Source: Gemmatimonadota bacterium (GTDB taxonomy: Bacteria > Orphanbacterota > Orphanbacteria > Orphanbacterales > Orphanbacteraceae). Taken from it: DNA of 53,493 bases. Below the pieces are notes generated by a model, which ran no database searches, was not told the DNA's origin, and saw only the letters and a list, made by a program, of their open reading frames with translations. Positions 8,884-53,063 of this stretch are shown in pieces. Both the position numbers and the translations under genes were made by a program. Numbering within the stretch: the first letter of the stretch is position 1; every line of letters begins with the position of its first letter. The DNA is taken from contig JAGUYC010000066.1 of assembly GCA_020061515.1 (NCBI GenBank), positions 1-53,493 of the forward strand, written 5' to 3'.

Positions 8884-10584
8884 GTGACCACGTTTCTTCT
8901 TCCGATCGGTGCGCTGTTCTTCCTCGCCGCAACCCTCCTCCTCCGGCAGCCTCCGGGGCTCGCGATCACCGCGCTTCTTCTCTCCGCCGTCTCGTTCGTC
9001 CCGATTTCGAGCGAGTTTCCCCGGACCTTCGAGCGGGCGGGCGCGCGGGTCGAGCGACGCTTCGCTCTCCTTCTCGGTCTTCTGACGGCGGCGCTTGTTG
9101 CGTTCTACGCTTGGCTCTGGGGATTCCACGCATACCGGTTCCAGCCGGTCGTTCACGACGAGTTCGCCTATCTCTTTCAGGCGAAAACCTTTCTCGCGGG
9201 CCGACTTCTCTTTCCATCCCCGCCCGAGCCGCTCTTCTTCGACGCGTTTCACATCCTGACCGATCCGGTCTACGCGTCGAAATACCCGCCGGGACACGCG
9301 CTTCTTCTTCTCCCCGGAGTCTCGCTCGGCGTGCCGTGGCTCGTCCCGATCCTCGCGACCGCCCTCTCGCTCGCGCTCCTCGGGATTCTCGCGAGGCCGC
9401 ATCTCGGCGCCGCGGGATCCCTTCTTCTCGTCCTTCTCTTCGGCTTCGCTCCCGCGGGGATCCAAACGGCGACTACCTACCTCTCGCAGACGTCGTATCT
9501 CCTCTCGTTCCTCCTCTTCGTCTTCTTCTTGACGCGCTGGGTGCGGAGCGGCGGGCGCGCGAACCCTCTTCTCGCGGGGCTCTTTCTCGGTCTCGCGTTC
9601 CTCGTCCGGCACTGGAATGCCGTCGTGCTCGCTGCGTTCGCAGCCGCGTGTCTTCTTCTCTTCCGCGAAGCGCGCGCTTCCTTCCGGAGACCGGCGCGGA
9701 CCGCGCTCTTTCTCCTTCCTCTCGCGCTCGCTGCGTTCTCGGTGCTCGCGTACAACCGCGCCGTCACCGGCTCGGCCTTCACGACCCCCTGGGAGCTTTA
9801 TGCCGAAAGGAGCCAGCCCGAGGACCGGTTCGGGTTCTACAGAGGGGAACCGATCGAGGAGCGCTCGGTCGCCGCGGGGAAACGGATCTACAACGAACGA
9901 GTGCTCTATCCGAACCGCACGCGCTACACGCCGGACCTCGCGATCCGATCGCTCCTTATCTTGCGGATCCCGATGTCCGCGTGGGAGGCGCTCCCGCCGG
10001 TCGGCTTCCTCTTTCTCGTGCCGTTCCTCCTCGCGCTTCGGGGCGCGCGGCGCCAGGCCGGTCTTGCGGCACTCTCGTTCTCGTTCCTTCTCCACGCGGC
10101 GTACCTTCTGTATTGGTTCCCGTGGGGACCGTACTACCACGAGATCACGCCCCTTCTTCTCGCGCTCCCCCTTCTCGGCGCGCGGGAGACGATGGAGCGC
10201 GCGTCGCGAGAGAGGCGTCCCGGCGTCTTCCTTTCGGCGATCCTTCTCCTCTCCCTTACCCTGGCGGCGGCCGCGGCCCGTCTCCCCTTCCAGATCGACT
10301 TCCGAAGGGAGAAGGCGGCCGTTCACGCCCGCTTCGAGCGCCTCGCCCTGCGCCGAACGCCGCCCGGATCGATCCTCTTCCTTCGCTACGGACGGGGTCA
10401 CAACCCGGACCTCGACCTCGTGAACAACGAGCCGGACCTCGCGCGCGCGGCGAGGATCTACGTCCACGATCTCGGCGAGGAGAGAAATCGAGCGTTCCGC
10501 GAGGCGCACTTCCCGGACCGCGCGCCGTTTCATTTCGACGAGGATCGCCGCACGGTCGCGCCCGGCTACGCGCCCCCCCAATAG
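8884..10584 (+). CDS. Polytopic membrane protein, GT-C (PMT/ArnT-like) glycosyltransferase candidate
   Basis: Many TM segments; HDEFAYLFQA and KYPPG in the first external loop. Confidence 0.65.
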   Translation: MTTFLLPIGALFFLAATLLLRQPPGLAITALLLSAVSFVPISSEFPRTFERAGARVERRFALLLGLLTAALVAFYAWLWGFHAYRFQPVVHDEFAYLFQAKTFLAGRLLFPSPPEPLFFDAFHILTDPVYASKYPPGHALLLLPGVSLGVPWLVPILATALSLALLGILARPHLGAAGSLLLVLLFGFAPAGIQTATTYLSQTSYLLSFLLFVFFLTRWVRSGGRANPLLAGLFLGLAFLVRHWNAVVLAAFAAACLLLFREARASFRRPARTALFLLPLALAAFSVLAYNRAVTGSAFTTPWELYAERSQPEDRFGFYRGEPIEERSVAAGKRIYNERVLYPNRTRYTPDLAIRSLLILRIPMSAWEALPPVGFLFLVPFLLALRGARRQAGLAALSFSFLLHAAYLLYWFPWGPYYHEITPLLLALPLLGARETMERASRERRPGVFLSAILLLSLTLAAAAARLPFQIDFRREKAAVHARFERLALRRTPPGSILFLRYGRGHNPDLDLVNNEPDLARAARIYVHDLGEERNRAFREAHFPDRAPFHFDEDRRTVAPGYAPPQ

Positions 10585-10589
10585 AAAGA

Positions 10590-10611
10590 GGCCGCGGGCG
10601 GTCCCGCGGCC
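10590..10611 (-). terminator. Intrinsic terminator between convergent genes
   Basis: GGCCGCGGG-cggt-CCCGCGGCC followed by TCTTTCTATT on the minus strand. Confidence 0.7.
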
Positions 10612-10636
10612 CTTCGTCAAGAGCTTGAGATCTCGA

Positions 10637-11311
10637 TTAACGATACAGAGTCTTCACCTGGCCCCAGCTCGACTCCTCGGTCCCCGTGACCTCCGCGCAG
10701 ACCCAGACGTCCCACGAGGTGAGGTTCGTGTCGTCGCCCGCCGCCGCGTCGCCGATCTCGAGCCAGAAGTTCCCGCCCGTCGGCGCGCCGATGAAGGCGG
10801 CGAAGGGGAAGGGGGATTCCGGCGCCGGCAGGTAGCAGCCGGTCGGGATCAGGGACGGGCAGGTCGGGTCGCCGAGGGCCGCGAGCGCCTCGTCCCCGAA
10901 CGTGTAGTAGCCGTTCACGTCGCCGCTGCAGCCGCAGCATCCGTCCGGCCAGGGACAGCCCGCGAGGTTCGGGCGACAGAGGAGCGCCACCGGCCCGATG
11001 TCGTAAACGTTGTCTCCGTCCACATCGTAGTAAAGCCAAGCGACGAGGTCGCCGACCCAGGTCTGGGTGAGCGTCAGGCTGCCGATGATCTTCGTGATCA
11101 CGCCGCCCGGGGCGGTGGGCAGAGGACCGAACGTGTACAGGACGTCCGAGACCAACACCTGGCCGACCGGGAAGACATACTGCGTGCACCCGGTCACGTC
11201 GCACTCGACGCGCTCCGCCGGCTCGCCGCCGTCGTTCGGGATCTTGACGTCGTCGGCGTACGCGCCGATGGCGATCCCGAGGAGGAGAATCACGATCGCC
11301 GTCTTCTTCAT
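10637..11311 (-). CDS. Secreted Cys-rich protein with proprotein-convertase P-domain-like fold and SWG C-terminal tail
   Basis: Signal peptide MKKTAIVILLLGIAIGAYA; TQTWVGDL and GNFWLEIGDAAAGDD..LTSW resemble P-domain motifs; ends TGTEESSWGQVKTLYR. Confidence 0.7.
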   Translation of the reverse strand: MKKTAIVILLLGIAIGAYADDVKIPNDGGEPAERVECDVTGCTQYVFPVGQVLVSDVLYTFGPLPTAPGGVITKIIGSLTLTQTWVGDLVAWLYYDVDGDNVYDIGPVALLCRPNLAGCPWPDGCCGCSGDVNGYYTFGDEALAALGDPTCPSLIPTGCYLPAPESPFPFAAFIGAPTGGNFWLEIGDAAAGDDTNLTSWDVWVCAEVTGTEESSWGQVKTLYR

Positions 11312-11588
11312 TCCACACACCTCTCGGCAAGGACCCTTGTGTCTTCCGCTCGGAAGACCCGCGGTTCGCGCGCGGCCTGCGCCGGGAGCCCGGAGAGGGT
11401 CCGTTCTCCGGACGGGGGGCAACAAGGCCGCCCTTCCACCATAACAAACAGAAACTATCGAAGAGGCCCGCCCCCCACCGTCCGGGGCGATGCTCTCCTC
11501 GTCCACGGGGGTCTCGAAGCGGTGATAGGTTAGCATGAGGACCTCTGCGATGTCAAGGGCGTTCGGGAGCCGGGTTCGGAGGTCCCCA

Positions 11589-11659
11589 CGGCGACGGAAG
11601 GGAGGCCTCTTGAGGCCACGATCCGCGTCCGCAGTAGGAAACGCGTGCATCGTCCAGGC
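11589..11659 (+). repeat. Partial (right-end) copy of the ~180-bp MITE
   Basis: CGGCGACGGAAG...ATCCGC...GCAGTAGGAAACGCGTGCATCGTCCAGGC matches the 3' part of the copies at 16309 and 20036. Confidence 0.8.
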
Positions 11660-11665
11660 GGAAAA

Positions 11666-11698
11666 GAAGGAGCCGCGGCTTTGAACCGCGGCCCCTTC
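11666..11698 (-). terminator. Intrinsic terminator
   Basis: GAAGGAGCCGCGG/CCGCGGCCCCTTC stem followed by TTTTC on the minus strand. Confidence 0.7.
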
Positions 11699-11720
11699 AC
11701 AAAGAGCTTGAAGGATCAGG

Positions 11721-12662
11721 CTAACGATAGAGCGTCTTCACCTGGCCCCAGCTCGTCTCCTCGGTCCCCGTCGGGCAGTCCAGCGTTCCGGTCAGGGTCC
11801 AGGCCCCGCCGCCCGAGAAGTTGTCGAGGATCAGGTAGTACGTGCCGCCCACGGCGAACACATGGTTGATCACCTCGGTCCCGCCCGAGAACGTTGCGTC
11901 CGCGCCGACGACGCAGGTGTTCGCCGGATCGGCGCAGTCGGTCACGATGTAGAACGACGCGTCGGCCGCCGAGTAGTAGGAGAGGCCGATCGTCGCGCCC
12001 GCCGGAACGGTGAACACGTACGTGATGTCCTTGCCCGCCGCGGAGTACCCCGTGCAGGAGGTCGGGTACACGCCCGGCGAGTAGTCGTTAATCGCGTACG
12101 TCATGTTCCCGGAGAGGTTGATCGTCGTGTTGCAGAGGATCTCGATCGCGCCCTCGCAACGGTCGTTCTCCGGCGGAGGAGGCGGCGGCTCGCAGGCCGT
12201 GCAGGTCATCGTGAGCGTGAACGCGCCCTGGGCCGTTCCGTAGCCGTCCACGACGATGTAGTACGTCCCCGGACCGACGCAGCCGGTGAGCGCGGAGGCG
12301 TCGCCGTACGCGATGCAGGCGTTCTCGCTGCACGAGCTGAGGATGAACACGTCGAGGTCGACCGACATGCCGGAGAGCGCCGCGCGGATCGTGTTCCATC
12401 CGGTCGTCGTGAGAACGAACACCTTCTCGGGTCCGCCCTCGTTCCAGGAAACGCAGTTGTAGGTGTTCACGTTGTTCACGCCGCCGACCGTCGTGCTCTG
12501 GATGGCCTGGCCGCACGCGATCACGGTGGCGCCGGTACAGTCGAGCGCGCGGGAGTTCTCAACGGGCACGCCGATCTCCGCCTCGATCTTCTTGTCCCGC
12601 TCATCGGCGAACGCCGGCAGAGCGAACACGAGACACAAAGCGATCACAAACAGGTTTCTCAA
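11721..12662 (-). CDS. Secreted protein with two PPC (pre-peptidase C-terminal)-like domains and SWG C-terminal tail
   Basis: GGAGGGAG RBS then TTG; signal peptide ending ALPAFA; repeats PGTYYIVVDGY and GGTYYLILDNF with a poly-Pro linker; ends TGTEETSWGQVKTLYR. Confidence 0.75.
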   Translation of the reverse strand: MRNLFVIALCLVFALPAFADERDKKIEAEIGVPVENSRALDCTGATVIACGQAIQSTTVGGVNNVNTYNCVSWNEGGPEKVFVLTTTGWNTIRAALSGMSVDLDVFILSSCSENACIAYGDASALTGCVGPGTYYIVVDGYGTAQGAFTLTMTCTACEPPPPPPENDRCEGAIEILCNTTINLSGNMTYAINDYSPGVYPTSCTGYSAAGKDITYVFTVPAGATIGLSYYSAADASFYIVTDCADPANTCVVGADATFSGGTEVINHVFAVGGTYYLILDNFSGGGAWTLTGTLDCPTGTEETSWGQVKTLYR

Positions 12663-13074
12663 GATGCTCCCTCCTTTTGCGGCTCTCGTCTTGTCGGGAC
12701 AAGACCGCCGCGCATCAATCGCCACGAACTCTTGCTATCACGGATTCGTACACCTTGACTTCCGCAATCACCTCCTCGCTTCCAGTCGCTTCGGTCGAAG
12801 ATGCTTCGATCCAGTCTCCTCTTTTTGTCGGTGTTTGCATTGTATCATCCCGGAGACCTCGGGGTCAACTGCAAAAGCGCCTTTCCCTTGAGCCTGCAAG
12901 GTCGGTGCGTCCCTGCGGCGACTTCGGGGGAATCCCCCGGTCCCGTCCGACCATTCGGATCGGCAGGCGCCCGGAAAACCTTGAATGGACAGGCGTTGAT
13001 CGAATGGAGATCGAGTCTTCCGCCCCTCCCATAACTTCTGAGAGGAGCCTCGTATTCAGTTCATTTAACTAATG

Positions 13075-19822: not shown

Positions 19823-20417
19823 TCAAGGCATGGGAACGTACTTCGCGAGCTCCTCAAGACCCTTGTCGATCCTTCTCGGAGCGAACTCGACTTGTTGATT
19901 GAGCAGGAAAGGCCTGGGAAGTTCCAGCGGACGGATTCCGGAAGTGAACGAGATGAGCCTTGCGCCGGGTTTCCGTCCCATCAAGATATTGGTTGTGAAG
20001 AAACTCCTCCACTCGAACTCGACCCACGGCCGTCTTAGCCTGGATGATGCACGCGTTTTCGTCGCGAGGATGCGGAGCGGGAGCCGAGAGGCCGACCGGT
20101 ACGAGCTGCTCCTGGAAACGTAGTCTCGGCACTACGCTCTAGGAAGCGGCGACGGAAGGGAGACCTCGCAGGCCGCGATCCGCAGCCGCAGTAGAAAACG
20201 CGTGCATAATCCAGGTTAGGTAGTCCGGTCGGGTTGCGACTGCAATCAGCGACGTCGCGGCATCCAACGCATCATCGATGATTGGCGGAAAGAACGGGCA
20301 CCTGATGTCCTGACTGCTGCAGATTGCGGAGATCCGTCGATCTCCGAGAGAGGGGCACACCAAGAGGACCGATTCCAAGGACAAGGAATCGGGCGCGGCA
20401 CATCCCCGCCCCACCAT
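19823..20417 (-). pseudogene. TIR-domain gene remnant interrupted by a MITE
   Basis: Removing the element restores IDDALDAATSLIAVATRPDYL|RRPWVEFEWRSFF...LPRPFL in frame; N-terminus degenerate. Confidence 0.7.
20036..20218 (+). mobile_element. ~180-bp MITE, copy 2, with TA target duplication
   Basis: TAGCCTGGATGATGCACGCGTTTTC...GAAAACGCGTGCATAATCCAGGTTA; colinear with copy 1. Confidence 0.9.
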
Positions 20418-20532
20418 GCTCCGTACCGTTTAACCCGGAGACGAGAAGTCTCGGGGCTTCGCCCGAGTCCACGGACGAGTTCCGGAGGTCCGCACGAGCA
20501 ACGAACGCCCTCCGGAAGAGGCCCCTTCGCCC

Positions 20533-23500
20533 TCACCGCCCGGTCCGGCGCGCAGCCCTTGCGAACTCCGCGAGCTCCCTCTCCACGCGATCCGCGAACG
20601 GATGCCCCGCGCGGCGATAGGCGTCCGCCCTCTCGGCGAGGAACGCGTGCTCCCAGGGAACGTGCGGCTCCCAGAGGACGATGGCGGAGGAATGCGCCTC
20701 CGGACCGAGGGCGCGCCCGATCTGGACGAGCGCGGTGAGGCGCTTCTCGTCGAGGACGTACGCCGCGAAGGGATCGCCGAGCGCGTCGAACAGCGTCCGC
20801 CTCGGCCATCTCGACGGAAAGATCGAGACCCCGCTCGATGAGATGCGGCAGGGCCCAGGGATCTCGCCGGCACGTTTCGAACGCCCGCGCGAGAAGCGCC
20901 GCCGCTTCCTCGCGCCTCTCCCCTCTCCACCTGAGAAGCGCCTCGAGAACGTCCGCGTCGGCGGCGTGCACCTCGCGCACCCGCTCGATCCAGGGCGCCG
21001 CCTCGTCCGACCCCGCCTCCGCGAGGAGATGCGCCCGCACGGTCGTTTCCATCGTCCCGAGAGATCCCGGGTCTTCGTCGAGGAGAGCCCGGGAAGCGCC
21101 CGAGATGTCCCCTTCCGCGTAGAGACCGTACGCTTCCGCCCGGCCGGCCGACGCGCTCCCCGCACCCGCCTCGGGCGGCGGCTGAATCCCTTGAAGGATA
21201 TACATTCCGAACCGCTCCCTCGAGACCCGCTCCCAATCGACCCGGCCGCGCGTTCGCTCCGGTCGGTGCTCGGAATGGGCAAGGGCGCTCCTTCTCAAGT
21301 CCTCGATGTGCTGGAGACCGCTCTGGCCGACCGTGCGAGCAAAGCCGAACTCGACGACCGGGCGGTTGTCCGTGTTCACCGGCGAAGGCCCCCAGAGGGG
21401 CGCGCGCCTCGCGAGGGGATGCCCCGCGACGAACCGGGAGAGAAAGCTCTCGAGACCGCGCGCGCGCCAGGCGTGCGCGAGGGCGGATGCGTACGGCTCC
21501 TTCTCCAGCCGGCCCCGGAGCGCCGGGACGTCGTACTCGATCGGCGTTCGGGAACAGACGAGAAGAAGGTCGTGGACCTTGGTCTGCCACGTCTCGACGT
21601 ACGGAAAGACCGAGGCGAGCGTGGCGTAGATCGTTCGGATCGTTTGCCCGTCGACTTCATACGCCTGAACCCACTGAAGGAAGAGACCGCCGTCGGAGAG
21701 GCGCGAGGAGACGGCGCGGTAGAACTCGGCCGTGAAGAGATCGGCGATGCCGGCCCGGTACGGGTTCGAGGGCTCCGACGTGATCAGGTCGTATCGATCC
21801 CGGGAGACGAGCACGATCTCGCGGGCGTCTCCGACGAAGACCCGGACCTTCGGGTTCTCCATCGCGCGCCGGTTCACCGAAGAGCATGCTCTTGCCACAT
21901 CGAGAATCGCCGGTTCGATCTCCGCGACATCGACTTTTTCCATCGTGGGGATCGACGCGAGCCATCCGGCCGTGCTTCCGGTCCCGAGGCCGATCACGAG
22001 CGCGCGCCTCGGTTCCGGGTGGAGGATCCCTCCCACCATGCCGTACATGACCTGCGTCGGAGCGTCGAGCCGCGCGTTTCCGTCGCTCTTTCCGTTGATG
22101 AGGAACGCGAGGCCCGACGTCGTCTTGAGCGCCACGCTGCTCTCCCTCCCCTCCGCTTCCCAGAGGATGCCGCGGCGGCCGGCGTGCAGCCAGTTGCGCG
22201 CGCCGTTCTCCGTCGCGTCCGGAAGCTTGACCCGGCCGGCGCCGATCGGCGTGTGCCGCCACGCGGCCGTCGGACCGGGCCCGCGAAGAAGAAGGAGCGC
22301 GATCCCCGAGACGATCACGGGGAGGAGGATCGACCGAAAGCGCCTCCTCTCTCGAACGGCGAGGACGAGCGCCGCGGCCGAGAGCGCGAGGAGGAGAAGA
22401 ACCGCGAGCCTCCACGTTCCGGGCGCGGTGAGCGTTTCCATAAGAAGGAACCCGGCCGCGAGCGAGCCGGCGATCGCGCCGATCGTGTTCCACCCGTAGG
22501 CGAGGCCGACCTCGCGCCCCACCTTCTTCCTCCCCTCGCCGAGGAGCGCGACGAGGAGCGGGAACTGATAGCCCGAGACGAGCGCGGCGGGAAGAACGAC
22601 GAGGGATGCGACCGCCGACCAGACGGCGACGCGCGGGAAGAAGTCTTCGGCGCCGAAGGGCTGCAAGCGAAGCGCGAGAAGAGCGACCCGGTCGCCGAGA
22701 GCGAGGGGGAGCGCGATCCACGCCGCTTCCAGCGCGCCGGTGAGCGCGAACGTCTCGAGGGTCGCGGGACTTCGCCGCCCGGCGACGGCATAGAGCGCGC
22801 CGCCCGCCCCGATTCCAAGTAGCACGAGCGCGAGGATGAGACCGAACGTGTACGTCGATCCGCCGAGAAGAGGCCCGAGCATTCGATACCAGACGATCTC
22901 CATCACGAGAAAGACGAAGCCGACGAGGGCGGCGGCGGGGAGGACGAAGAGCGCGGTCGGGCGGCGGGTTGCGGCGGCGACGATCTCCGTTCCTTGCTCG
23001 TCGGCGGACCGATCCGCGGCGGCGGGCGCGGAACGCGCGATGCGAAGAGCGAGAAGCCCGATCGCTCCGTTCAGCGCGCACGCGGACCAGAGGGTTTCGC
23101 GGATTCCGATCGCTTCGAGGAGAAGAAAGGTGGCGAGAAGAACGCCCGCGACGCCGCCGAGCGTGTTCGCGCCGTAGAGGAGGGCGACACCCGTCCGGTT
23201 CCGATCCTCGTCGGTCGCCGCCGCCCGCGCCGCGGCCGGAAGGGTCCCTCCCATGAGAAACGTCGGAACGCCGATCACCATCGCCGAGAGGAGGAGCCGC
23301 GCGACCGTCGCCGTCTCGATCCCGAGCGAGGGGGAACCGCCCGTCAGCACATAGAGCCGGCGAACGAGAAGGAAGAGCCCGGGCGAGAGCGCCGCGCACG
23401 CGGCGATCCCGATCTCGAGACGGCCGTAGAAGCGAAGCGCGTTCCCGATTCGATCGACCCGCCGTCCGAGCGCGAGGCCGCCGAAGCCGAGCCCCGCCAT

Positions 23501-23674
23501 AAAGATCGCGAGCACCGCCGCGGACGCCGGAGTGGAGGCGCCGAAGACCAAGCGAAACTCGCGAAGCCAAACCGCTTGATAGACGAGCGCAGAGAAGCCG
23601 GACCCGAAGAGAAGAAGAGCGACGGTTCGCGTGCGATCGCGCAAAGCAGATACCTCCGATCCGGACCGGGACAT
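20533..23674 (-). pseudogene. Fused MFS-like membrane domain/spermidine synthase-like protein with a frameshift near 20800
   Basis: FGSGFSALVYQ, PTFLMGGTLP, LVIGLGTGST, DVAEIEP, GDARE, SEPSNP; plausible C-terminus (LFDAL...EPHVPWE...ELAEF) lies in another frame ending at 20533. Confidence 0.7.
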
Positions 23675-23939
23675 CGAGAGGACGCTAGCCGGGCGGCTTC
23701 CCGCTGTCAACGGATCGGGGACGCGGGTTCGCGCGTTTCGCGTCTGCGACTCGCCTCCTCTCGGTCCGACCGGCCCAGCATCGCGCGATCGAAGCCGCTC
23801 CCGCGGAGGTGCCGGATTCCTGTGGACACGCGCGTTCGGCTGTGCGAACAATCATCATGCACACAATCGATCGTCTCGCCCCCCGCACTCGGCGACATGG
23901 ACCGCCGCACGGACCGAGGTCGTTTTTCGGAGGACCCAA

Positions 23940-27423: not shown

Positions 27424-27767
27424 TTCCCCGTGCTCCGAGCCCCGCGCCGCTCGCGCCCTAGTCCGCTCTGCCGGCCGGAAAATCTGTGCGTGAGGCCGCT
27501 TCGTAACTCCGACCATCCCCGCGATGCGACTTCGCCGCGCCCGCCTGATGAAGCAAAGTGCCGAAGTCCTCCAAAGTCAACCGGGCGTGAGTTTCTGGAA
27601 AGGGAACGGTCGGAATCGGCGAAATCCGCAGCAGGCCGCCGATGGAGCTTGAAGAGCTCCTTGGTCTCCGGTAGGCTCGTAACGGTCCTAGGCAATCCCC
27701 TGTGCGTCCCCGGTTTGGCTCTCATGCGCCGCGCCGAACATCGCAAAACCCGATGGAGGACTTCGTC

Positions 27768-28271
27768 ATGCGCGCTCTCTTTGACGGCTGGAAGAAGTGC
27801 TTGTTGTTCCCCGCAGCGTTCCTTCTGGCAGTTGGTCTCGGTACCGGCTGCGGCGGCGATGACGACAACGGCACCGGCCCCGACAACGGAGGCGGCGTCA
27901 ATGAACAGATCGCGTTCACCTTCGACGGAACGCAATACACAGGCGATCTATGCATGGCCAATTACATGGTCGGTGACGACGCAACCAGCCTTACCACCGG
28001 AGACGGGGACAGCTGGGCTCTGCTTATTGACTTCCCCGGAAGCAGCACAGGATCCTTCAACGCGGCCGACGGGGTATACGCCATGCTGACCCTCGCGCCG
28101 CACCTGTACCAATCAGAGGAATTCGTGATCGCGGTAACGGCCTATGGCGGGATCGGCGCGGCAGTCACGGGAACCTTCTCCGGGACTCTTGTCCATATCG
28201 CGGACGAGAATGACGTGAAGCAGATCACCAACGGAACCTTCACGGCGGAGAGACTGTCGAACGTCCAGTAG
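27768..28271 (+). CDS. Hypothetical lipoprotein
   Basis: GGAGG RBS; lipobox LGTGC followed by GGDDDNG; beta-rich body ending ITNGTF. Confidence 0.75.
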   Translation: MRALFDGWKKCLLFPAAFLLAVGLGTGCGGDDDNGTGPDNGGGVNEQIAFTFDGTQYTGDLCMANYMVGDDATSLTTGDGDSWALLIDFPGSSTGSFNAADGVYAMLTLAPHLYQSEEFVIAVTAYGGIGAAVTGTFSGTLVHIADENDVKQITNGTFTAERLSNVQ

Positions 28272-31321: not shown

Positions 31322-32453
31322 GGGACGTAGTTCCGCACGTTCCGTTCAGCGCGACTCGTTCTCGGTCATGACCGACCGGTCGAGCATCGTCGCTCCACGC
31401 TCCACCGCCCGGAGGACGCTGGACTGCGAGACATGAAGTTCGCGGGAGAGGACGGCTACCGAAAGGCCCAGCCGGTGGACGCCCAAGTGGCAGGCGATGC
31501 TCCGCGCTTGCAGGACGCTCCTTCGTCGCCCGCCTCCGGTGATTTCTGAGATGGAGAGTCCGTATTGGGCCGAGATCGTGCCCAGGATCTCCTCGAACTC
31601 TCTCATGCGCTTTTCTACCGAACGGGATCTCTCCCGAGCCTCCCGCTCGGCTTGCCCAAGTACGGACTCCACGAACTGCCCTTCGCCCAGGATCCGATCG
31701 TCGCGGGCCTCATTCGATCCCGACTCTGTCCTTGGAGGACCCCACGGATTCTCCTCGCCGGATGAAGTCCCGCCGCCGGCAAACGTTTGGACATCCGCTC
31801 GCCCCGCATCCGATCGCATGAAATCTTCGAGGCGCTTGCGTGCGGGCCCGACCCTGCTCCCGAACCGGGACAACACCGCCTCCGTATCCTGCCAGGAGCG
31901 CTCGACCTTCCCCATGAGTGCGCCGTGGCCGCTCCATGGGTACGACTCGAGCCCGGCGAGGTCGGGCACGATGCCGGCACGCACGGGGTTCAGATGAATG
32001 TATCGGACCAAAGCAAGCAGGTACGGCTCCTCGTCGACCACCTTCGAGCGGTAGCGGTTCTCGAAGAGATGGCCCACTCTCCGATGCGTCTTGTTGAACC
32101 GGATTGCGTAGCCGGTCAAGAGACGCTGCATGATTCTCGAGAGCGGCTGTGTACCGGTCCTGATCGCGAGGTGGATATGATTCGGCATCAGGCACCACGC
32201 GTAAACGAACGCAGCATCCTTCTCGCAGCTGCTCTGGAGACGATTGAGGAAATCGTCACGGTCGCGGCCGGACCGGAAGATCACGCAACGGTCGATTCCG
32301 CGGGCACGAACGTGATGGAGCAAACCGGGAATATCGATTCGAGGCTGTCTTGGCACCCGTGTCTCCATTTCGGGGGAGCGAACGGCCCGAAGAATGCGAG
32401 AAGTCACCACGCTCGGTCGATGACGACGAACGGAAGCAACGGAACTACGTCCC
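31322..32453 (-). mobile_element. Y1/RAYT-like element bounded by 26-bp imperfect inverted repeats
   Basis: GGGACGTAGTTCCGcacgTTCCGTTC (31322-31347) and GAACGGAAgcaaCGGAACTACGTCCC (32428-32453). Confidence 0.75.
31346..32356 (-). CDS. Y1 (HUH) RAYT-like transposase with C-terminal DnaA-C-like HTH
   Basis: HHVRARG, AWCLMPNHIHL (HUH), GHLFENRY, YIHLNPVRAG, YPWSG; helical C-terminus ARSIACHLG. Confidence 0.88.
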   Translation of the reverse strand: MPRQPRIDIPGLLHHVRARGIDRCVIFRSGRDRDDFLNRLQSSCEKDAAFVYAWCLMPNHIHLAIRTGTQPLSRIMQRLLTGYAIRFNKTHRRVGHLFENRYRSKVVDEEPYLLALVRYIHLNPVRAGIVPDLAGLESYPWSGHGALMGKVERSWQDTEAVLSRFGSRVGPARKRLEDFMRSDAGRADVQTFAGGGTSSGEENPWGPPRTESGSNEARDDRILGEGQFVESVLGQAEREARERSRSVEKRMREFEEILGTISAQYGLSISEITGGGRRRSVLQARSIACHLGVHRLGLSVAVLSRELHVSQSSVLRAVERGATMLDRSVMTENESR

Positions 32454-32471
32454 CGAGAGAGGATTCGCGTC

Positions 32472-34004
32472 TCAGCCTCCCTCCCTCCACCTCGGGCGGT
32501 CGAGGGAGCGGTACTGGATCGCCTCGGCGAGGTGCGGGGCGCGGATGCTTTCGCTCCCAACGAGATCCGCGATGGTTCTTGACACGCGAAGGATCCGGTC
32601 GTGCGCGCGCGCCGAGAGCCCGAGCTTGTCCATCGCGGCGCGAAGGAGCTTCCGCCCTTGTTCATCCGGCGCGGCGAACTTCCGAATCTCCCGCGGCCCC
32701 ATCCGCGCGTTCGTGAAGAGCCCCGGAATCGCCGCGAATCTTGAGTGTTGAACCATGCGCGCGCGCTCCACGCGCTCCCGCACCGCCGCCGACGACTCCC
32801 CCGGAGCGATCTCCGAAAGATCCTTGTACGCCACCGGCGGCACCTCAACGTGGATGTCGATCCGATCGAGCAGCGGCCCGGACACGCGGCTCGCGTACCG
32901 CTGGATCTCCCCCGGCCGGCACGCGCACCGGGGATCTCCGAAGTAGCCGCAGGGGCAGGGGTTCATCGCCGCGGCGAGCATGAAGGCGGACGGAAAGACG
33001 AGAGAGACGGCCGCGCGCGCGATGCGGATGCTCCCCTCCTCGAGAGGCTGGCGAAGAAGCTCGATGACTTTCTTCTTGAACTCGGGGAGCTCGTCGAGGA
33101 AGAGGACGCCGTGGTGGGCGAGCGACGCCTCCCCCGGGCGGGGATACGCGCCCCCGCCGACGAGTCCGGCGTCGGACGTCGAGTGGTGCGGCGCGCGAAA
33201 CGGCCTCCTCCGGACGAGCGAGGAGCCGGCGGGAAGAAGCCCCGCGACCGAATAGATTCTTGTGACATCAAGCGATTCCTCCCGCGTCAGCTCCGGAAGA
33301 ATCGAGGGAATCCTTTGAGCGATCATCGTCTTTCCGGAGCCGGGCGGACCGATGAAGAGGAGGTTGTGTCCGCCGGCCGCGGCGATCTCGACCGCCCGAC
33401 GCGCCTGCTCTTGCCCGCGGACATCCTCGAGGTCGAGAGAGAGGCTCGAACCGTCTTCAGACCCTCCGGTCGGAAGATAGGGAGGGCCTTTCTCCGGCGC
33501 GCGGAGATGCTCGATTGCGTCGCGGAGCGAGCGGACCGGATAGACGCCGATCCCCTCCACGATCGACGCCTCCTCCGCGTTCTCGGGAGGGAGAAGCATC
33601 GCCCCGACGCGCAGTCGGCGGGCGAGCATCGCCATCGAGAGGACGCCGCGCACCGGACGTAGATTCCCGTTCAGCGAAAGCTCGCCGACCGCGAGAACTG
33701 AGTCCGATCCGAACGGGTCGATCTGCTCCGAGGAGACGAGAATCCCGAGCGCGATCGCCAGATCGAAGAGCGCGCCTTCCTTTCGGATGCCGGCCGGGGC
33801 GAGGTTCACGGTGATCCGCCGCGCGGGAAAGTGAAAACCCGAGTTCTTCACCGCCGCGGCGACCCGCTCCCTCGATTCGCGAACCGTCGCGTCCGGAAGC
33901 CCGACGACCGAGAACGCAGGGAGCCCTCCGCCGAGATCCGCCTCCACCGTCACGCGGTACGCGTCGACCCCGATGAGCGCGCTAGAGAGAACGCGGGCGA
34001 GCAT
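32472..34004 (-). CDS. comM: YifB/ComM Mg-chelatase-like AAA+ ATPase
   Basis: VGLPDATVRESRERV, GPPGSGKT, FRAPHH, LFLDELPEF, AMNPCPCG, SGPLLDRID. Confidence 0.95.
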   Translation of the reverse strand: MLARVLSSALIGVDAYRVTVEADLGGGLPAFSVVGLPDATVRESRERVAAAVKNSGFHFPARRITVNLAPAGIRKEGALFDLAIALGILVSSEQIDPFGSDSVLAVGELSLNGNLRPVRGVLSMAMLARRLRVGAMLLPPENAEEASIVEGIGVYPVRSLRDAIEHLRAPEKGPPYLPTGGSEDGSSLSLDLEDVRGQEQARRAVEIAAAGGHNLLFIGPPGSGKTMIAQRIPSILPELTREESLDVTRIYSVAGLLPAGSSLVRRRPFRAPHHSTSDAGLVGGGAYPRPGEASLAHHGVLFLDELPEFKKKVIELLRQPLEEGSIRIARAAVSLVFPSAFMLAAAMNPCPCGYFGDPRCACRPGEIQRYASRVSGPLLDRIDIHVEVPPVAYKDLSEIAPGESSAAVRERVERARMVQHSRFAAIPGLFTNARMGPREIRKFAAPDEQGRKLLRAAMDKLGLSARAHDRILRVSRTIADLVGSESIRAPHLAEAIQYRSLDRPRWREGG

Positions 34005-34201
34005 CGTGTTCGCTGCCCGGACGGCCGCGCGATCCCGAGAAACGTCGAAGCCGAGATTCGGCCCGCGGCCGTCTTACCTCCACCTCGATCCTCTCTGTCT
34101 CCTCCTCCTCCGCACCCCTCGGCCTTCTTGGACGGGGAACCGCCGGAATTGACGCGTGAAGCTCCACTCGCTATGTTCCTCCTGTTCTTCGGGGGAAGTC
34201 G

Positions 34202-35875: not shown

Positions 35876-37756
35876 CTATCCGGGGGGAAGAAGAATCACC
35901 TTCCTCGTCTCCGTGTACGCGGGGCCCACTCGAAAGCGTAGGAAGTAGACGCCGGCGGCCGCCTCCCTTCCGCTCTCGGTCCTCCGGTCCCAAACGACGG
36001 ACGCCCTCCCCGATCGCAATCGGCCCGCCTCGACGTCGCGGACCCTTCTGCCGCCGCAGTCGTACACGCGGAACGCCGCCTCCATCCCCTCGAAGGCGGC
36101 GGGAACCTCGATCGCGAAGCGGACCGGCCCCGCCGTCGGGTTCGGACCATCCGGCTCGATCGAGAGCGCGCCGTAGCGTTCCGGGAGGAGGACGGCAACG
36201 GGCCCGAAATGGAGAGATCCGCCCGGGACCTCGACCGAGAGGGAATACCGAACCCGCTGCCGCTCTCCCACCGCGGGGAGCGTGCGATCCTCGCAGAAGT
36301 AGTAGCCGGGACCGTCGAGAGCACCGAGGGCGACCAGAACTCCGCCGGCGCCCGCCTCGCTATCGTCGCGAAAGAGCGAGTACGGCGCGCGGTCCGCATC
36401 GCCCTCGACGCTCCACTCGAGAAGGACCCGGTCGCGAACGAAACGCGCGCGATGGAACCGAAGCCGAATGGGGGCAGGCGCTTCCAGCCCCGGAAGGCGG
36501 ATCCGAAGCCCGCGAAACCTCCTTTCCTCCCCGCGTTCCTCCAACCAGACGGCAAGGGAATCCTCGAGAGCGAAGGGACCTTGTCGGCCCGGCGCGAGCG
36601 AGATCGGAAACGCCCGGCCGTCCGCGAGCCGCCGCCCGCGAAGGTCCCGCTCCCCGCCTGCCTCCTCGCTCCACACGAGAAACCCGCTCCCGAAGGCCGG
36701 ATCGCGGAGGTCGCTCCCGTCCCCCGCGATCGTGTCGATCGTCCCCTCCGCGAACCGATGAAGAAGCAACACCCACCGGGTTCCCCGGCGCGCCGCGAAG
36801 GCGATCCCCTCGGAGCCGATCGAAGGGGCGAGGAGCGAATCGTCGGACCGATGGACGAGCGCGCGGTTGCGCGTCGCGAGATCCGCCGTCCAGACCGCCC
36901 ACGTCTCCCCGTCGCTCTCGAGCCATGCCGCCCGTCCGGCGCGGACCGAAGGGCTCCCCGAAGAGGGGAACTCGAGAGGAAAGGAGAACGCCTCCCCGCG
37001 AACCGGGAGCAGAAGGATCTCTCCGAACGTCCCGCAGCAGCTTTGGAACCAGGCGGAAAGGGAATCCCCCGCGGCCGGGCGCGCCGCCGGGAAGTTCGGA
37101 TCGGAGACCGGCCTCGACGTTCCGCTCTCGACGTCGAGCCGGTGGATCCGGCCCCGACGTTCGTAGAGGATGCAACCTTTGCCGAGTGAAGCATCATGCC
37201 CGCTCCGCGCAGCGCCCTCGACCTCCGTTCCGCTCCCGAGTTCGAAGAGACGAAAGCCGTCCGCCTCCCGCACGAGAAGAAACGGGAAGCGGAGGTCGAT
37301 CCCCTCCGCCGGTCCGGGATCGATGGGAATCGCGAACAGCTCGCCCGCCGTGGTCGGTCCGACCGGAACGACCGCCCTCGCGAGCAAGGCTCCTCGCGAG
37401 GAATCCATCCGCGCCTCCACCGCGAGCGACTCCTCCTCCCCCTCCGCATAGGGAAGCACGACGGGGATCCGACAGAGGACCGAATCCTCTCCCGGGAGCG
37501 GGGGAAGCGGAAAGCTCCCGACCTCCGCCCCGCGCGCGCTCCACCGGACGGCAAGCATGGCTCCCCTTTCCCACGTGCCCGTCACGCGAACCGGAACGGC
37601 GACCGAGTCCCCCGCGAGGAAGGTTCTCCACCCCCCCGTCGTGTCGACGGCGATCGCGAGCGCCCGCGGCGTGTCGATCGCGTGCGAACCGAGCGCGGCT
37701 CCCGCATTTCCGGCGACCGCAAGAGCGGCGAGGAGCACGAGCGACCGCTTTCCCAC
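35876..37756 (-). CDS. Secreted beta-repeat protein with FlgD-like Ig C-terminal domain
   Basis: Signal peptide; TolB-like repeats; C-terminal PNP...VYD..GRRVR...WD...G...AAGVYF. Confidence 0.7.
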   Translation of the reverse strand: MGKRSLVLLAALAVAGNAGAALGSHAIDTPRALAIAVDTTGGWRTFLAGDSVAVPVRVTGTWERGAMLAVRWSARGAEVGSFPLPPLPGEDSVLCRIPVVLPYAEGEEESLAVEARMDSSRGALLARAVVPVGPTTAGELFAIPIDPGPAEGIDLRFPFLLVREADGFRLFELGSGTEVEGAARSGHDASLGKGCILYERRGRIHRLDVESGTSRPVSDPNFPAARPAAGDSLSAWFQSCCGTFGEILLLPVRGEAFSFPLEFPSSGSPSVRAGRAAWLESDGETWAVWTADLATRNRALVHRSDDSLLAPSIGSEGIAFAARRGTRWVLLLHRFAEGTIDTIAGDGSDLRDPAFGSGFLVWSEEAGGERDLRGRRLADGRAFPISLAPGRQGPFALEDSLAVWLEERGEERRFRGLRIRLPGLEAPAPIRLRFHRARFVRDRVLLEWSVEGDADRAPYSLFRDDSEAGAGGVLVALGALDGPGYYFCEDRTLPAVGERQRVRYSLSVEVPGGSLHFGPVAVLLPERYGALSIEPDGPNPTAGPVRFAIEVPAAFEGMEAAFRVYDCGGRRVRDVEAGRLRSGRASVVWDRRTESGREAAAGVYFLRFRVGPAYTETRKVILLPPG

Positions 37757-38091
37757 GGCGCCCTCCTTTCCCTGTCCGCCCTCCGGTGCAAGGCGCGTGC
37801 CCGACCGAGCAGCAGAGCTCCGCCGGGGATCCGCGTCCGCCTCAACGGTTTCCGCTCGGAGCGCGGCCGCCGTTTTTCGGTCGCCCGCCCACGGGATGGA
37901 CGCTCCCGACCGCGGCGTAGACTTCTCCCGCCCGCGCCGGGCTTTCCAGAATCCCCCGTTCTTTTTTGTTGCGGCGCCGAAGGAGGGGTTACACTTGTCC
38001 CCCGCCGGGAGATCCCCGCCCGGGCGGGGAAGAGAGCGAGCGCCGAAAGCCCGGCGCCGGAAAAGACAGACGCGCCCGAGGGTTTTTATTC

Positions 38092-43428: not shown

Positions 43429-45156
43429 TCAGCGCACGAGCGAGATCCGCTTCGACTCGGACGCGGTGCCCGAGACCATTCGAACGAAGTAGACGCCGGG
43501 CGCCGCGTCGCGTCCGGCGTCGTCCCGCCCGTCCCACGCGACCGACGAGCCGGCGAGCTTCCCTCGCGCGACCAGATTCCGCACGTGGCGGCCTGCGACG
43601 TCGTACACGTCGATCGATACGGGGCGGCCGGCGGGCGCCGCGAAGCGGATGTTCGCTTCGCCCGGCTCAAACGGGTTCGGCGAGACGGAAAGGAGCGGCT
43701 CGGAGGTCGGAGGCGACCCGTTCGGCGCCGGGCTTGCCACGCCGGTCAAGCTCGGGAACGCGACCACGACGAAATAGCCCTCCAGCACGAGACGGCCGCC
43801 GGGAGCTCCTCTCTCGCGCGCATCGATCTCGTCCCCGACGAGCCCGCGCGCTTCGGAACGAAGCGCGCGCGTCGGCTCGCTCGGCTCGGAGGGCGTTCCG
43901 GCGATCGCGGTCGGCGGGGAGTCGAAATCCGCCGTGAAGTAGACGCGAACGCTCCCGTCCACCGGATCGCGATCGCTGAGCGTGAGCGCGCTGATCCCGG
44001 TGAAGTCGGTCAGGGCCGTTCCGGCATCCGCGAGGCCATCGCCGTTCACGTCGACCGGGTCTCCCTCGCGCACGAGCAGCTGCTCGTCGAGGTAGAGCGC
44101 CTCGATCGCGCCTCCTTGGATGTCCCAGATGAACGCGACATCGCCTTCCGCGTTCATGTACGCCCCTTCGATCGCCCCCGCGAGGACCTCGCCGTCCAAG
44201 ACGTCCCCTTCGCGATAGACGATCCGGCCGTCGATCACGACGATCTCGTCGAGCGCGACGTCTGCGTTCGTGTCGCCGGTGAACATCCATCGCCCGGCGT
44301 CCGTGATCCCCATGAAGTCGAAATTGTCCCAGAGCTCGTTCGGCAATCCCCCCGCCGACGCCGGAACCGGTCCGTTCTCGCTGACCGGAAGGCCGTCGAC
44401 CACGACCACCGCTCCGTCAATCACCACATGGTCGTCGTTCAGCGTCGATCCGGTCACCGTTTGGACGTTGGCGATGAAGTGGTTTCCGCTCGCGGAGAAG
44501 CGGTAGTCGAAGGTGGGCGAATTGTGCCCGAGCGTGTCGGGGAGTCCGACGATGGACCCGCCTCCGAGAAGGAGCGGCGTCGCTCCGAAACCGTAGAAGA
44601 GCCCTCGGTTCTGCGTGCTCCCGCCGGGCGTGCTCGTGATCCCGCCAACGAAGTGCGGAACACCCGCCGCCGTCGCGCCGGGCCGGCTCCCAAAGCTCCA
44701 GTACTTTCCCGCGAGGTGCGGGTAGGGTTCGCGCTCGATCATCACCTTCGTATCGTCGAGATAGACCGCGTCGAGAGACGTAAACCCGTTCACCGTGTCG
44801 TCGCAGATCGGGCTGTAGGCGACCTCGAGCGCGTTCGAGATCCCGAAGAACGTCTCGAACGAATTCTGCCTGTACTGCTCGATCGATGTCTCGGTCCGAA
44901 GCACCGTTCCGGCGCCCGGGAAGTTCCCTCCCCACGCATGGCTCCGCGTGACGAGACCGTCCGTCGAGTTCACCGTGACGGCATACCCCGTGCCGTGGCT
45001 CACCGCCGTGTTGTTCAGCGATTGGATCGTGTGGCCGGGCGGGGCCCCGGGAAGCGTTCCTCCCTCCAGAAGAAGAGCGGTGGGGACCTCGGCGCGCGCC
45101 GGATGGATGGAAGGGAGCAAGAGAAAGAGAGCGGCGATTGGAAGGCGAGACCTCAC
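43429..45156 (-). CDS. Secreted protein with FlgD-like Ig C-terminal domain
   Basis: GGAGG RBS then GTG; signal peptide ending ARA; C-terminal TGV...PNPF...VYDVAGRHVR...WDGRDDAG...PGVYF. Confidence 0.8.
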   Translation of the reverse strand: MRSRLPIAALFLLLPSIHPARAEVPTALLLEGGTLPGAPPGHTIQSLNNTAVSHGTGYAVTVNSTDGLVTRSHAWGGNFPGAGTVLRTETSIEQYRQNSFETFFGISNALEVAYSPICDDTVNGFTSLDAVYLDDTKVMIEREPYPHLAGKYWSFGSRPGATAAGVPHFVGGITSTPGGSTQNRGLFYGFGATPLLLGGGSIVGLPDTLGHNSPTFDYRFSASGNHFIANVQTVTGSTLNDDHVVIDGAVVVVDGLPVSENGPVPASAGGLPNELWDNFDFMGITDAGRWMFTGDTNADVALDEIVVIDGRIVYREGDVLDGEVLAGAIEGAYMNAEGDVAFIWDIQGGAIEALYLDEQLLVREGDPVDVNGDGLADAGTALTDFTGISALTLSDRDPVDGSVRVYFTADFDSPPTAIAGTPSEPSEPTRALRSEARGLVGDEIDARERGAPGGRLVLEGYFVVVAFPSLTGVASPAPNGSPPTSEPLLSVSPNPFEPGEANIRFAAPAGRPVSIDVYDVAGRHVRNLVARGKLAGSSVAWDGRDDAGRDAAPGVYFVRMVSGTASESKRISLVR

Positions 45157-45375
45157 AGCGGCACCTCCTGGGGCAAACGGCGTAGGCTTTCGGCCAAAGA
45201 AGCGTATCGGCATATCGATCGTACTCGCGCGAGGGTTCTCGAGTCAAAGGAAACGTTTCGAAGCAGAAGGATCGCGCGGAGCGGCCCGCGGGCTCTCCTT
45301 CCAATCGGCAAATGGCATCCGTTCCCATCCGCGCGCGGATGGCCGGGCCGGTCGCCGCGTGCTAGACTTCCTTTC

Positions 45376-46447: not shown

Positions 46448-46600
46448 AGATGTACCAGGTACGTTCGGATCTACCAGGTACACGAATCCGGTACACGAAC
46501 CCGACCACACCCTGGGCACTCGCGCAGCCCGAAAACCCGCAACCCTCGAGCGCACCGTCCGTGAATCAGGGCATGATACTTGCGGGTTGTACCGGGTACA
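46448..46600. repeat. Left cluster of TGTACCWGGTACA-type palindromic REP-like repeats
   Basis: Copies at 46451-46462, 46472-46482 and 46588-46600. Confidence 0.75.
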
Positions 46601-46615
46601 GGAGGGTGGGGCGCG

Positions 46616-47167
46616 ATGGCGCGAACGCCTCGAATCGTGATCCCCGGAGTCCCGCACCACGTCTCGCAGCGAGGGAGTCAGGGACAGCATGTGTTCGACA
46701 CCGACGAAGACCGGGTTCTTTACCTCGACCTCCTTCACAGATACGCCAACATGCACGGTCTCGGGATATGGGCATACTGCTTGATGGCGAACCACGTCCA
46801 CTTGGTCGCCGTCCCTCAGGACGCCCAATCGATCGCTCTCTGTCTTCACGGCGCGCATCGTCTCCACGCCCTCCGGCGAAACCGGCGGGCCGGCGTGACC
46901 GGACATGTCTGGCAGGGTCACTACTATTCGTGCGGACTCGACGATCGGCATCTGTGGGCGGCCGTGCGGTATGTCGAACGGAATCCAGTCCGCGCCGGGA
47001 TCGTCGCCCGCGCCGAAGACTACCCGTGGTCCAGCGCGGCCGCGCACTGCGGGTCACGCGCGAACTTGCTTCTTGCGAACGATTTTCCGCCTTCGCACGA
47101 CGTCCGGGACTGGGCCGCGTGGCTCGCCGAGCCGGACGACGAAGCCCCGGTCGCCGCGATCCGGTGA
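46616..47167 (+). CDS. RAYT (REP-associated tyrosine transposase), probably C-terminally truncated
   Basis: MARTPRIVIPGVPHHVSQRG, AYCLMANHVHL, GHVWQGHY, YVERNPVRAG, YPWSS. Confidence 0.88.
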   Translation: MARTPRIVIPGVPHHVSQRGSQGQHVFDTDEDRVLYLDLLHRYANMHGLGIWAYCLMANHVHLVAVPQDAQSIALCLHGAHRLHALRRNRRAGVTGHVWQGHYYSCGLDDRHLWAAVRYVERNPVRAGIVARAEDYPWSSAAAHCGSRANLLLANDFPPSHDVRDWAAWLAEPDDEAPVAAIR

Positions 47168-52850: not shown

Positions 52851-53063
52851 GTATCGAACGCGTGCCCGGATTTCGGAACCGTTCTCGAAACCGATCCGCT
52901 CTTCTGCTCCGCCGAGACGGGGGACTTCGCCCTCTGCTCGAACTCGCCCGCGGCCGGCGGGCCGTGCGGCCTCCTCGGCGCGTTCGACGTCGGATGCGGT
53001 TCGTGCGGTCCGATCCGGACGCAGCCGACGAGCTGGGGAGTGATGAAGAGACTCTTTCGATCG
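52851..53063 (+). pseudogene. Orphan C-terminal fragment of a secreted protein with an SWG tail
   Basis: Reads DPLFCSAETGDFALCSNSP...CGLLGAFDVGCG...TQPTSWGVMKRLFR, then TCG where a TAG stop would be expected. Confidence 0.6.

Follow-up and report, generated by a model that had tools for sequence, protein, structure and literature searches.

The LPXTG and PEP-CTERM signals and the sorting domain of the secretion system of type IX (T9SS) each led to a machine for secretion or attachment, and all three are used routinely to predict surface proteins. Here we describe a C-terminal tail found on two tandem exported proteins, A and B, which are encoded in contig JAGUYC010000066.1 of a Gemmatimonadota bacterium (assembly GCA_020061515.1); the whole stretch analyzed, 53,493 nucleotides, is called the window. 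We tentatively read the tail, with a confidence that falls somewhat short of even, as a modular terminal docking or sorting tag that is read by a partner in the cell envelope and that occupies the slot of the T9SS domain. The T9SS type A signal is a seven-strand immunoglobulin-like sandwich read by PorV; a type B signal takes up about 100 residues and depends on a PorP/SprF shuttle, the gene of which usually lies downstream (PMC12618676). Passages of PMC11285876 describe the last strand of the T9SS C-terminal domain (CTD; 'motif C-t.') as carrying a conserved Lys and as needed for export, map the signal of HBP35 to its last 22 residues, report that C-terminal extensions of the signal are tolerated, and state that T9SS may occur in other phyla of the Fibrobacteres-Chlorobi-Bacteroidetes (FCB) group.

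An earlier note on this DNA had pointed to two neighboring genes for signal-peptide proteins with different bodies and near-identical tails, and both genes were confirmed (Table 1). The open reading frames (ORFs) 10637..11650 and 11721..12725 translate into C-termini that read VTGTEESSWGQVKTLYR and PTGTEETSWGQVKTLYR, respectively, each followed directly by the stop codon; the two proteins have the end TGTEE[ST]SWGQVKTLYR in common, on unrelated bodies. In the protein collection A is P0003 (224 aa) and B is P0036 (313 aa), at lengths identical to those deduced from the window. The signal peptide of A has a best 10-residue hydrophobic window with a mean of 3.50, preceded by a net charge of +2; the value for B is 3.42, and B orthologues begin MKKLL...A.PVLAD. 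The body of A is Cys-rich, belongs to no known family and gave no Pfam or NCBIfam match, and that of B contains two PPC-like repeats. Of the body types named in the earlier note, PPC was recovered for B as a sub-threshold match (E 0.0054) and is precomputed (PF04151) on many B homologues; the P-domain (PF01483) proposed for A was found only as a precomputed annotation of three distant homologues. No PDB sequence was matched by the A-family profile, and B matched PDB sequences only at E>0.2.

The two tails are also alike as DNA. A degenerate DNA pattern of the tail and its stop codon matched the window twice and matched none of 100 shuffles. The tails form a 50-nt direct repeat (10638-10687 and 11722-11771; 94% identity) and agree in 13 of 15 comparable codons, among them the rare TAT (0.21) and CGT (0.06); window codon usage predicts 7.9 identical codons (simulated P=0.0034). 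Across the 128 listed tails of the loci described below, TAT occurs 45 times and CGT 13 times, so that the codon sharing of A and B does not reflect a general codon rule. The rare codons common to both suggest that the tail moves as a cassette, and it was probably copied between genes A and B, by gene conversion or cassette exchange. Such shared DNA ancestry is the one observation in favor of denying the tail any common function and ascribing it to chance, to the common descent of a few paralogs or to a translated DNA element.

The spread of the tail argues otherwise. Scanning one genome per species with the pattern WSNTGGGGNNNNRTNAARNNNNTNTAYCGNTRR, we found at least 128 loci, 127 of the listed ones with a real stop codon. 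From 124 tails, cut to 30 residues (alignment A3), we built a profile that matched 2,396 protein clusters at E<=1e-3 among 1.84 billion representative proteins, many of the matches being short fragments from contig ends. Thus, the motif is by no means limited to the paralogs of A and B. In 127 tails, the positions -17 to -13, which the search pattern left unconstrained, were conserved (Pro in 42; Val in 59 or Thr in 37; Pro in 67; Val in 50 or Thr in 41; Glu in 54 or Arg in 22), and Cys was frequent at -19 or -18. The motif is therefore longer than the search pattern: the conserved unit comprises about 17 residues, with the full consensus P-[VT]-P-[VT]-E-x-x-[ST]-W-G-x-[IV]-K-[AS]-[LM]-Y-R. 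The Thr-Gly pair of A and B, which had been likened to a linker in the FlgD-like gene at 43429, is not typical, since its two positions are mostly Val or Thr and then Pro, with Gly in only 8 of the 127 tails, and the linkers before CTDs have no common motif. Among the tails of the loci, the codons for Gly, Lys, Tyr and Arg vary synonymously, which indicates selection on the peptide and not on the DNA. Moreover, no Rfam family matched the window. With thousands of clusters carrying the motif on unrelated bodies, the spread and the codon data refute the absence of a shared function, to which we give almost no credence.

No Pfam or NCBIfam model covers the tail in A, in B or in the sets of tail proteins scanned (68, 90 and 73); comparison of PDB sequences with the tail profile gave one chance-level match only (E 1.7), and searches of open-access papers and preprints turned up nothing on the tail. 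The tail is therefore a real and apparently undescribed C-terminal tag, and the assignment to a characterized domain that would have counted against it according to the earlier note was not found. Word-index comparison of a 42-aa tail alignment to longer proteins was uninformative (43 matches at E<=10 among 8,000 candidates).

Conservation was also seen in families gathered without the pattern. A search with A yielded 32 homologues of P0003; of the 33 proteins including A, 31 finish with W-[GSATE]-x-[IV]-K-x-x-[YF] and 0-2 further residues, another has Phe in place of Trp, and the last, a 365-aa protein with other domains, has no tail. In an alignment of 31 members (A1) the Lys (K220) is invariant and the Trp (W216) at least 90% conserved, and the last one or two residues vary. 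Candidates for homology to B were picked by shared 5-residue words, which enriches for tails to some extent by construction; of the 81 matches, 55 end in the motif, 11 in close variants (e.g., Phe for Trp) and 15 without it, and six of these 15 have FlgD_ig or Por_Secre_tail domains instead. The Lys is kept in all the listed tail-like endings of B matches but one, in which it is Arg (P0090). Such strict or almost strict conservation of W, G and K, which extends to these families, points to a specific partner.

By the labels of the matches listed, the tail appears restricted to certain lineages: 57 of 59 taxon-labeled loci carry FCB-type or Effluviviacota labels. Eisenbacteria account for 30 loci, 'Fibrobacteraceae' or 'Fibrobacter sp.' metagenome-assembled genomes (MAGs) for 9, Latescibacteria/-ota for 7, Krumholzibacteriota/-ia for 6, Gemmatimonadota for 3, and Zixibacteriota, Effluviviaceae, Limnocylindria and Nocardia for one each. 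The Fibrobacter-labeled loci have a G+C content of 55-70%, and their label is given as deposited. The Nocardia match is due to chance, as it ends in TGG and not in a stop codon. The Limnocylindria-labeled contig (L113, 2.7 kb) has the tail and a proper stop in a Chloroflexota MAG bin; it may have been mis-binned, or it may represent one of few carriers that do not belong to the FCB group. A lineage-restricted tag with a putative role in sorting or attachment remains the best reading, in partial agreement with the lineage-specific export or attachment signal put forward in the earlier note.

The position of the motif is nearly absolute. Among the best 150 of the 2,396 profile matches, 146 have it no more than 4 residues from the C-terminus, with one residue after the Tyr or Phe in 117, two in 23, three in 5 and four in 1, counts that are biased in that the profile was built from Y-R endings. 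Of 19 further relaxed motifs in the flanks of the loci, which the pattern had not selected, 13 are followed by a stop within 3 codons and one by a stop at 5; the other five rows are the Nocardia match, a relic in the window (see below), an apparent stop loss (L001) and one fusion listed twice (L070/L071), in which two tandem tail-bearing paralogs are joined head-to-tail (L070:72-1334). Internal copies occur as well. Tandem motifs number four in P0159 and two in each of P0161, P0198 and P0290, whereas P0173, P0190 and P0304 combine a C-terminal motif with another that begins 10-15 residues past the signal peptide; most members of this multi-copy family, in which the head-to-tail fusion is also found, have a lipobox (GCGDDD and similar). 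The non-terminal copies, at least, must be independent of a free C-terminus, and the presence of several copies suggests additive binding, that is, docking rather than a one-shot terminal signal.

The proteins that carry the tail are of the exported type. We applied a crude rule for signal peptides, which takes the best start codon and asks for a hydrophobic window of 10 residues that reaches at least 2.2; by this rule, 62 of 73 complete tail ORFs were signal-peptide-like, compared with 3 of 20 cytoplasmic enzymes of the window. Four of the eleven rule-negative ORFs (those of L013, L036 and L039 and the second gene of L049) also show a signal peptide when judged by eye, and 78 of 91 representative matches of at least 170 aa passed the hydrophobicity criterion. 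Most tail proteins thus have signal peptides, contrary to the cytoplasmic occurrence that would have refuted the idea of the earlier note. Tail proteins are small (median 231 aa, interquartile range 213-260), and 82% of the 62 that were called signal-peptide-like have at least two Cys in their mature part. A Pfam family was assigned to 17 of 68 tail proteins (seven of the beta-helix/NosD/pectate-lyase type, three LTD, and one each of PD40, CBM96, CBM_4_9, DUF7901, DUF7450, ThuA and CHRD), leaving 51 without one. The 90 top profile matches comprise 26 of the beta-helix type, one PKD and 63 with no family, a distribution that favors beta-helix proteins because the tail profile includes the CGLxGAxGxGC stretch of that family. 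Above the NCBIfam cutoffs we found choice-of-anchor domains J (twice), W and E and one DNRLRE domain. As used for the choice-of-anchor A family in 10.1101/2023.03.06.531300, the term denotes surface proteins with one of the alternative anchors LPXTG, PEP-CTERM or T9SS; to judge from their names, the same meaning may extend to the J, W and E domains. A lipobox is present in some of the carriers as well. The tail is not universal among the exported proteins of this organism, since two lipoproteins encoded in the window (at 27675-28271 and at 50921-51541) lack both the tail and a CTD.

Homologous bodies are found with either the tail or a T9SS type A domain. The B-body homologues P0039-41 (about 560 aa) have TIGR04183 (32-34 bits) exactly at the position of the tail of B. 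LTD bodies alternate in the same way, CTD-bearing and tail-bearing LTD proteins being encoded by adjacent genes in L075; beta-helix bodies occur with either ending, as seen from a neighbor of L031; and an InhA-like MAM body occurs with one ending in a neighbor of L009 and with the other in P0058 and P0059. Proteins with a T9SS-type CTD are, moreover, the only recurrent neighbors of tail genes (16 of 187 ORFs by clustering; 13 of 144 by Pfam, the 144 being those scanned of 185 unique ORFs, with short ones left out). When a conserved neighbor was sought as the partner by BLAST clustering of the 187 ORFs, a single cluster emerged, held together by the T9SS-like CTD. The tail thus stands at the C-terminus of proteins of the Sec-exported type in lineages that have T9SS CTD proteins. 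Because it takes the slot of the T9SS type A domain on homologous bodies, we suggest that it represents a second and much shorter 'choice of anchor' in these lineages.

The same alternation could mean that the tail is a minimal export signal of the T9SS, or of a shuttle, which mimics the last CTD strand, with or without later cleavage, and is enough for the outer-membrane translocon. Lineages and contigs with the tail also encode T9SS type A domains, and the extreme C-terminal position, with 0-3 extra residues tolerated, would fit such a signal. The tail and the CTDs of the lineage share the end x-aliphatic-hydrophobic-basic, and in both a conserved Lys or Arg precedes it by a few residues; in the tail this Lys is invariant, four residues before the last, and the end is hydrophobic-hydrophobic-basic as in those CTDs. 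This shared pattern, together with the Lys-bearing strand, the short HBP35 signal and the tolerated extensions reported in the passages of PMC11285876 cited above, keeps a T9SS-linked reading alive and stops short of establishing it. However, the T9SS signals described so far are all folded domains, and type B calls for about 100 residues and a nearby PorP/SprF gene (PMC12618676). The models TIGR04183, PF18962 and PF13860 did not match A or B at E<=1, and the T9SS CTD models gave no match in scans of 68, 90 and 73 tail proteins, although they do match P0001 and P0039-41; nor did the NCBIfam model of the type B CTD (TIGR04131) match tail proteins. Neither PorP/SprF nor PorV was found among the 144 ORFs neighboring tail genes. 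Finally, tandem copies, or copies that follow a signal peptide, cannot serve as a C-terminal export signal. On balance we consider it unlikely that the tail is a T9SS export signal.

If the tail is instead a docking tag, a protein that carries it would be exported via its N-terminal signal peptide (Sec). The spacer P-[VT]-P-[VT]-E, made of Pro, Val, Thr and Glu, would then keep the 10-residue segment [ST]-W-G-x-[IV]-K-[AS]-[LM]-Y-R off the folded body. Within this segment the W, I/V, L/M and Y at i, i+3, i+6 and i+7 could form a helix of 2-3 turns, with one hydrophobic stripe flanked by K and R, and this unit would dock non-covalently into a putative receptor of the cell envelope, which would retain or place the protein there. 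The conserved hydrophobic residues indeed lie at -9 (W), -6 (I/V), -3 (L/M) and -2 (Y), with variable or small positions between them, a spacing that is compatible with the short amphipathic helix of the earlier note and that suggests a helix rather than a strand. The hydrophobic moment (0.48 at 100 degrees, 0.54 at 120 degrees, with a modest peak of 0.57 at 115 degrees) does not, however, exceed that of shuffles.

Several points weigh against a docking tag. The helix is suggested by residue spacing alone, and 25% of shuffles at 100 degrees and 14% at 120 degrees reach the observed moment. The near-absolute C-terminal position would suit a threaded export signal equally well, and the proteins with multiple or N-terminal copies are rare (7 of 150) and apparently belong to one body family. 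By Pfam, no recurrent candidate for a partner was found among the 144 neighboring ORFs. The scan required Y-R-stop with CGN Arg codons, which favors G+C-rich codons and biases the taxonomic sample; in addition, 69 of the matches listed are labeled only 'bacterium' or 'uncultured bacterium', with no phylum. We also know of no cultured carrier of the tail.

Short terminal amphipathic helices, such as those of MinD, FtsA and PBP5, are an established membrane-targeting device, and the tail could likewise bind lipid or lipopolysaccharide directly, as an interfacial aromatic-basic helix that needs no receptor. Its last ten residues have a net charge of +2.2 and contain W and Y, whereas the preceding ten have a charge of -0.9; the conserved hydrophobic residues recur every 3 positions, and a terminal position together with multi-copy forms would fit binding by avidity. 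Nevertheless, the moment does not exceed that of shuffles and the mean hydrophobicity of the tail is about -0.07. The invariant W-G and K, moreover, go beyond what a generic lipid-binding helix usually needs, and in those carriers that are already lipoproteins a second anchor in the same membrane would be redundant. Direct lipid binding therefore seems rather improbable to us.

In Braun's lipoprotein (Lpp), which ends in Y-R-K, the C-terminal Lys is linked to peptidoglycan by L,D-transpeptidases. By analogy, the tail could be a site of covalent processing, its invariant Lys being linked to peptidoglycan or another polymer by an L,D-transpeptidase-like enzyme, or it could be the target of a C-terminal processing protease. 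The Lys is present in 31 of 31 aligned members of family A and, Arg in P0090 apart, in the tail-like endings of B matches; the Y-R ending resembles that of Lpp, and tail genes adjoin a gene for a YkuD L,D-transpeptidase (L066:160-1878) and one for an S41 C-terminal processing peptidase with TPR repeats (L038:189-1973). The Lys is not terminal in the tail, however, its replacement by Arg is seen once, and each candidate enzyme occurs once among the 144 neighboring ORFs. We regard covalent processing as very unlikely. A rhomboid protease gene (L013:2918-3844) also adjoins a tail gene once, and the S41, YkuD and rhomboid enzymes are candidates for a partner of the tail.

On a wider scale, it is conceivable, although we would sooner doubt it than assume it, that Eisenbacteria, Krumholzibacteriota, Latescibacterota and their relatives have an unrecognized system for envelope sorting or anchoring, which would run parallel to the T9SS or plug into it. 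A dedicated receptor would read the tag of about 10 residues, [ST]WGx[IV]K[AS][LM]YR, on its Pro/Val/Glu spacer, and the cargo would be thousands of small secreted proteins.

A third, divergent instance of the tail reported in the earlier note (TQPTSWGVMKRLFR, 53019-53060 on the plus strand) is not C-terminal, because the frame continues 44 codons further. Only the part 52884-53060 of this frame resembles anything: it matches the last ~60 residues of tail-bearing right-handed beta-helix proteins (L043, E 7e-13; L068, E 2e-9). In a six-frame translation of the window, a hidden Markov model of the tail found it at E 1.4e-6, and this sequence was outside the training set; the same local model found the tail of A at E 9.8e-9, but that tail was in the training set. 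No body or signal peptide lies upstream, as a radical-SAM gene ends at 52762. In L035, the ortholog of this radical-SAM gene (47% identity, E 1e-99) has behind it a complete gene for a 337-aa beta-helix protein with signal peptide and tail. By this comparison, the window copy is the 3' remnant of a deleted beta-helix tail gene. In L035 an ORF with a Spermine_synth domain also adjoins the tail gene.

Table 1. Positions in the window of genes A and B, their signals and other features discussed in the text.
Feature	Position	Strand	Details
Gene A	10637-11311	-	224 aa, exported; within ORF 10637..11650; likely start at MKKTAIV
Gene B	11721-12662	-	313 aa, exported; within ORF 11721..12725; likely TTG start at 12662
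Signal peptide of A	11255..11311	-	MKKTAIVILLLGIAIGAYA/DD; cleavage site predicted from sequence only
Signal peptide of B	12606..12662	-	(M)RNLFVIALCLVFALPAFA/DE
Tail of A	10640..10687	-	TGTEESSWGQVKTLYR; stop codon 10637-10639
Tail of B	11724..11771	-	TGTEETSWGQVKTLYR; stop codon 11721-11723
Terminator-like hairpin directly 3' of gene A, between convergent genes	10589..10612	-	consensus match only
Promoter-like site upstream of gene B	12839..12868	-	consensus match only
Exported protein with T9SS type A sorting domain	43429..45243	-	TIGR04183 26.1 bits (cutoff 23), residues 520-600; FlgD_ig 28.8 bits; the other C-terminal ending in use in this lineage
Second exported protein, FlgD_ig-like CTD, weaker	35876..38089	-	FlgD_ig 24.1 bits, below cutoff 27; CTD part of PorU model E 1e-4
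Relic of the 3' end of a beta-helix tail gene	52884..53060	+	DPLFC...CGLLGAFDVGCG...TSWGVMKRLFR; without body, signal peptide or stop after the motif
Three PMT_2/ArnT-like GT-C membrane glycosyltransferase genes	8884-10584, 34160-35824, 53237-53493 (runs off end)	+	one with TPR repeats

The hairpin downstream of gene A consists of 10 pairs, of which 9 are G-C, with a T-rich stretch after it, and beyond it lies a convergent glycosyltransferase gene; the promoter-like site upstream of gene B matches the consensus at 10 of 12 hexamer positions. The spacer between A and B (11312-11720) is unusually long, at 409 nt, and includes a weak terminator-like hairpin at 11459-11477 and no Rfam match. Each of the three GT-C genes has a tail gene, a CTD gene or the tail relic as its immediate neighbor, the N-terminus at 53237 having been judged by eye. 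A link to glycosyltransferases was dropped, since PMT_2 was found in only one of the 144 ORFs beside tail genes elsewhere, and the arrangement in the window is probably a local coincidence. The window also contains two ORFs for IS200-like Y1 transposases (31346-32962, minus strand; 46577-47167, plus strand), the longer of which also holds a DnaA C-terminal helix-turn-helix domain, and a 1,201-codon frame at 20246-23851 on the minus strand with MFS-like membrane segments and a spermidine-synthase domain. Rfam, tRNA and tandem-repeat scans of the window found nothing.

The tail marks at least 2,396 protein clusters in phyla represented by metagenomes only, and no Pfam domain was found in 51 of the 68 carriers scanned. 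With a model of the tail, part of the secretome of these organisms could be annotated immediately and the partner could be sought by phylogenetic profiling; such a model would also test whether the T9SS, or something beside it, reads a signal far shorter than any described. If the 10-residue tag proved to be self-sufficient, it could also serve as a compact tool for surface display.

Like the tail, the LPXTG, PEP-CTERM, GlyGly-CTERM and MYXO-CTERM signals are short C-terminal signatures that are restricted to certain lineages and are found there on many unrelated exported proteins, and signals of the LPXTG/PEP-CTERM type share with it an occurrence on 'choice-of-anchor' domains. The signals for sortase, exosortase and rhombosortase, however, are tripartite, with a membrane-spanning helix and a basic cluster after the motif, whereas the tail has 0-4 residues after the motif and no hydrophobic segment; it is indeed too short and too polar for the transmembrane anchors of PEP-CTERM, LPXTG or GlyGly-CTERM, as the earlier note had held. 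None of the NCBIfam sorting-signal models matched tail proteins, and we know of no cognate processing enzyme. Three other known devices were considered and set aside. The beta-signal of outer-membrane proteins does not fit, since the bodies are of the soluble type and the last residue is usually Arg, or variable in family A; the Lpp-type attachment signal for peptidoglycan does not fit a tail with a terminal Arg or variable residue and an internal Lys; and choline-binding or cell-wall-binding repeats (PF01473 and similar) gave no Pfam match among the scanned proteins. The membrane-targeting sequences of MinD and FtsA and the anchor of PBP5 resemble the tail in that they occupy the terminal ~10-18 residues and have a high content of aromatic, aliphatic and basic residues; they need no cleavage to act. 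These helices are confined to single families, are mostly cytoplasmic and are conserved in pattern only; the tail, in contrast, has invariant W, G and K, occurs on thousands of unrelated exported proteins and shows weak statistics of amphipathicity. Like the tail, the T9SS type A domain (TIGR04183/PF18962, FlgD_ig-like) is C-terminal and modular and is found on many unrelated signal-peptide bodies in bacteria of the FCB group; the two occur in the same genomes, in neighboring genes and on homologous bodies. Yet the models of the type A domain span 72-79 positions, and the tail, with its 16-20 residues, cannot form a seven-strand sandwich. Unlike the type A domain, the tail can also stand in tandem or near the N-terminus.

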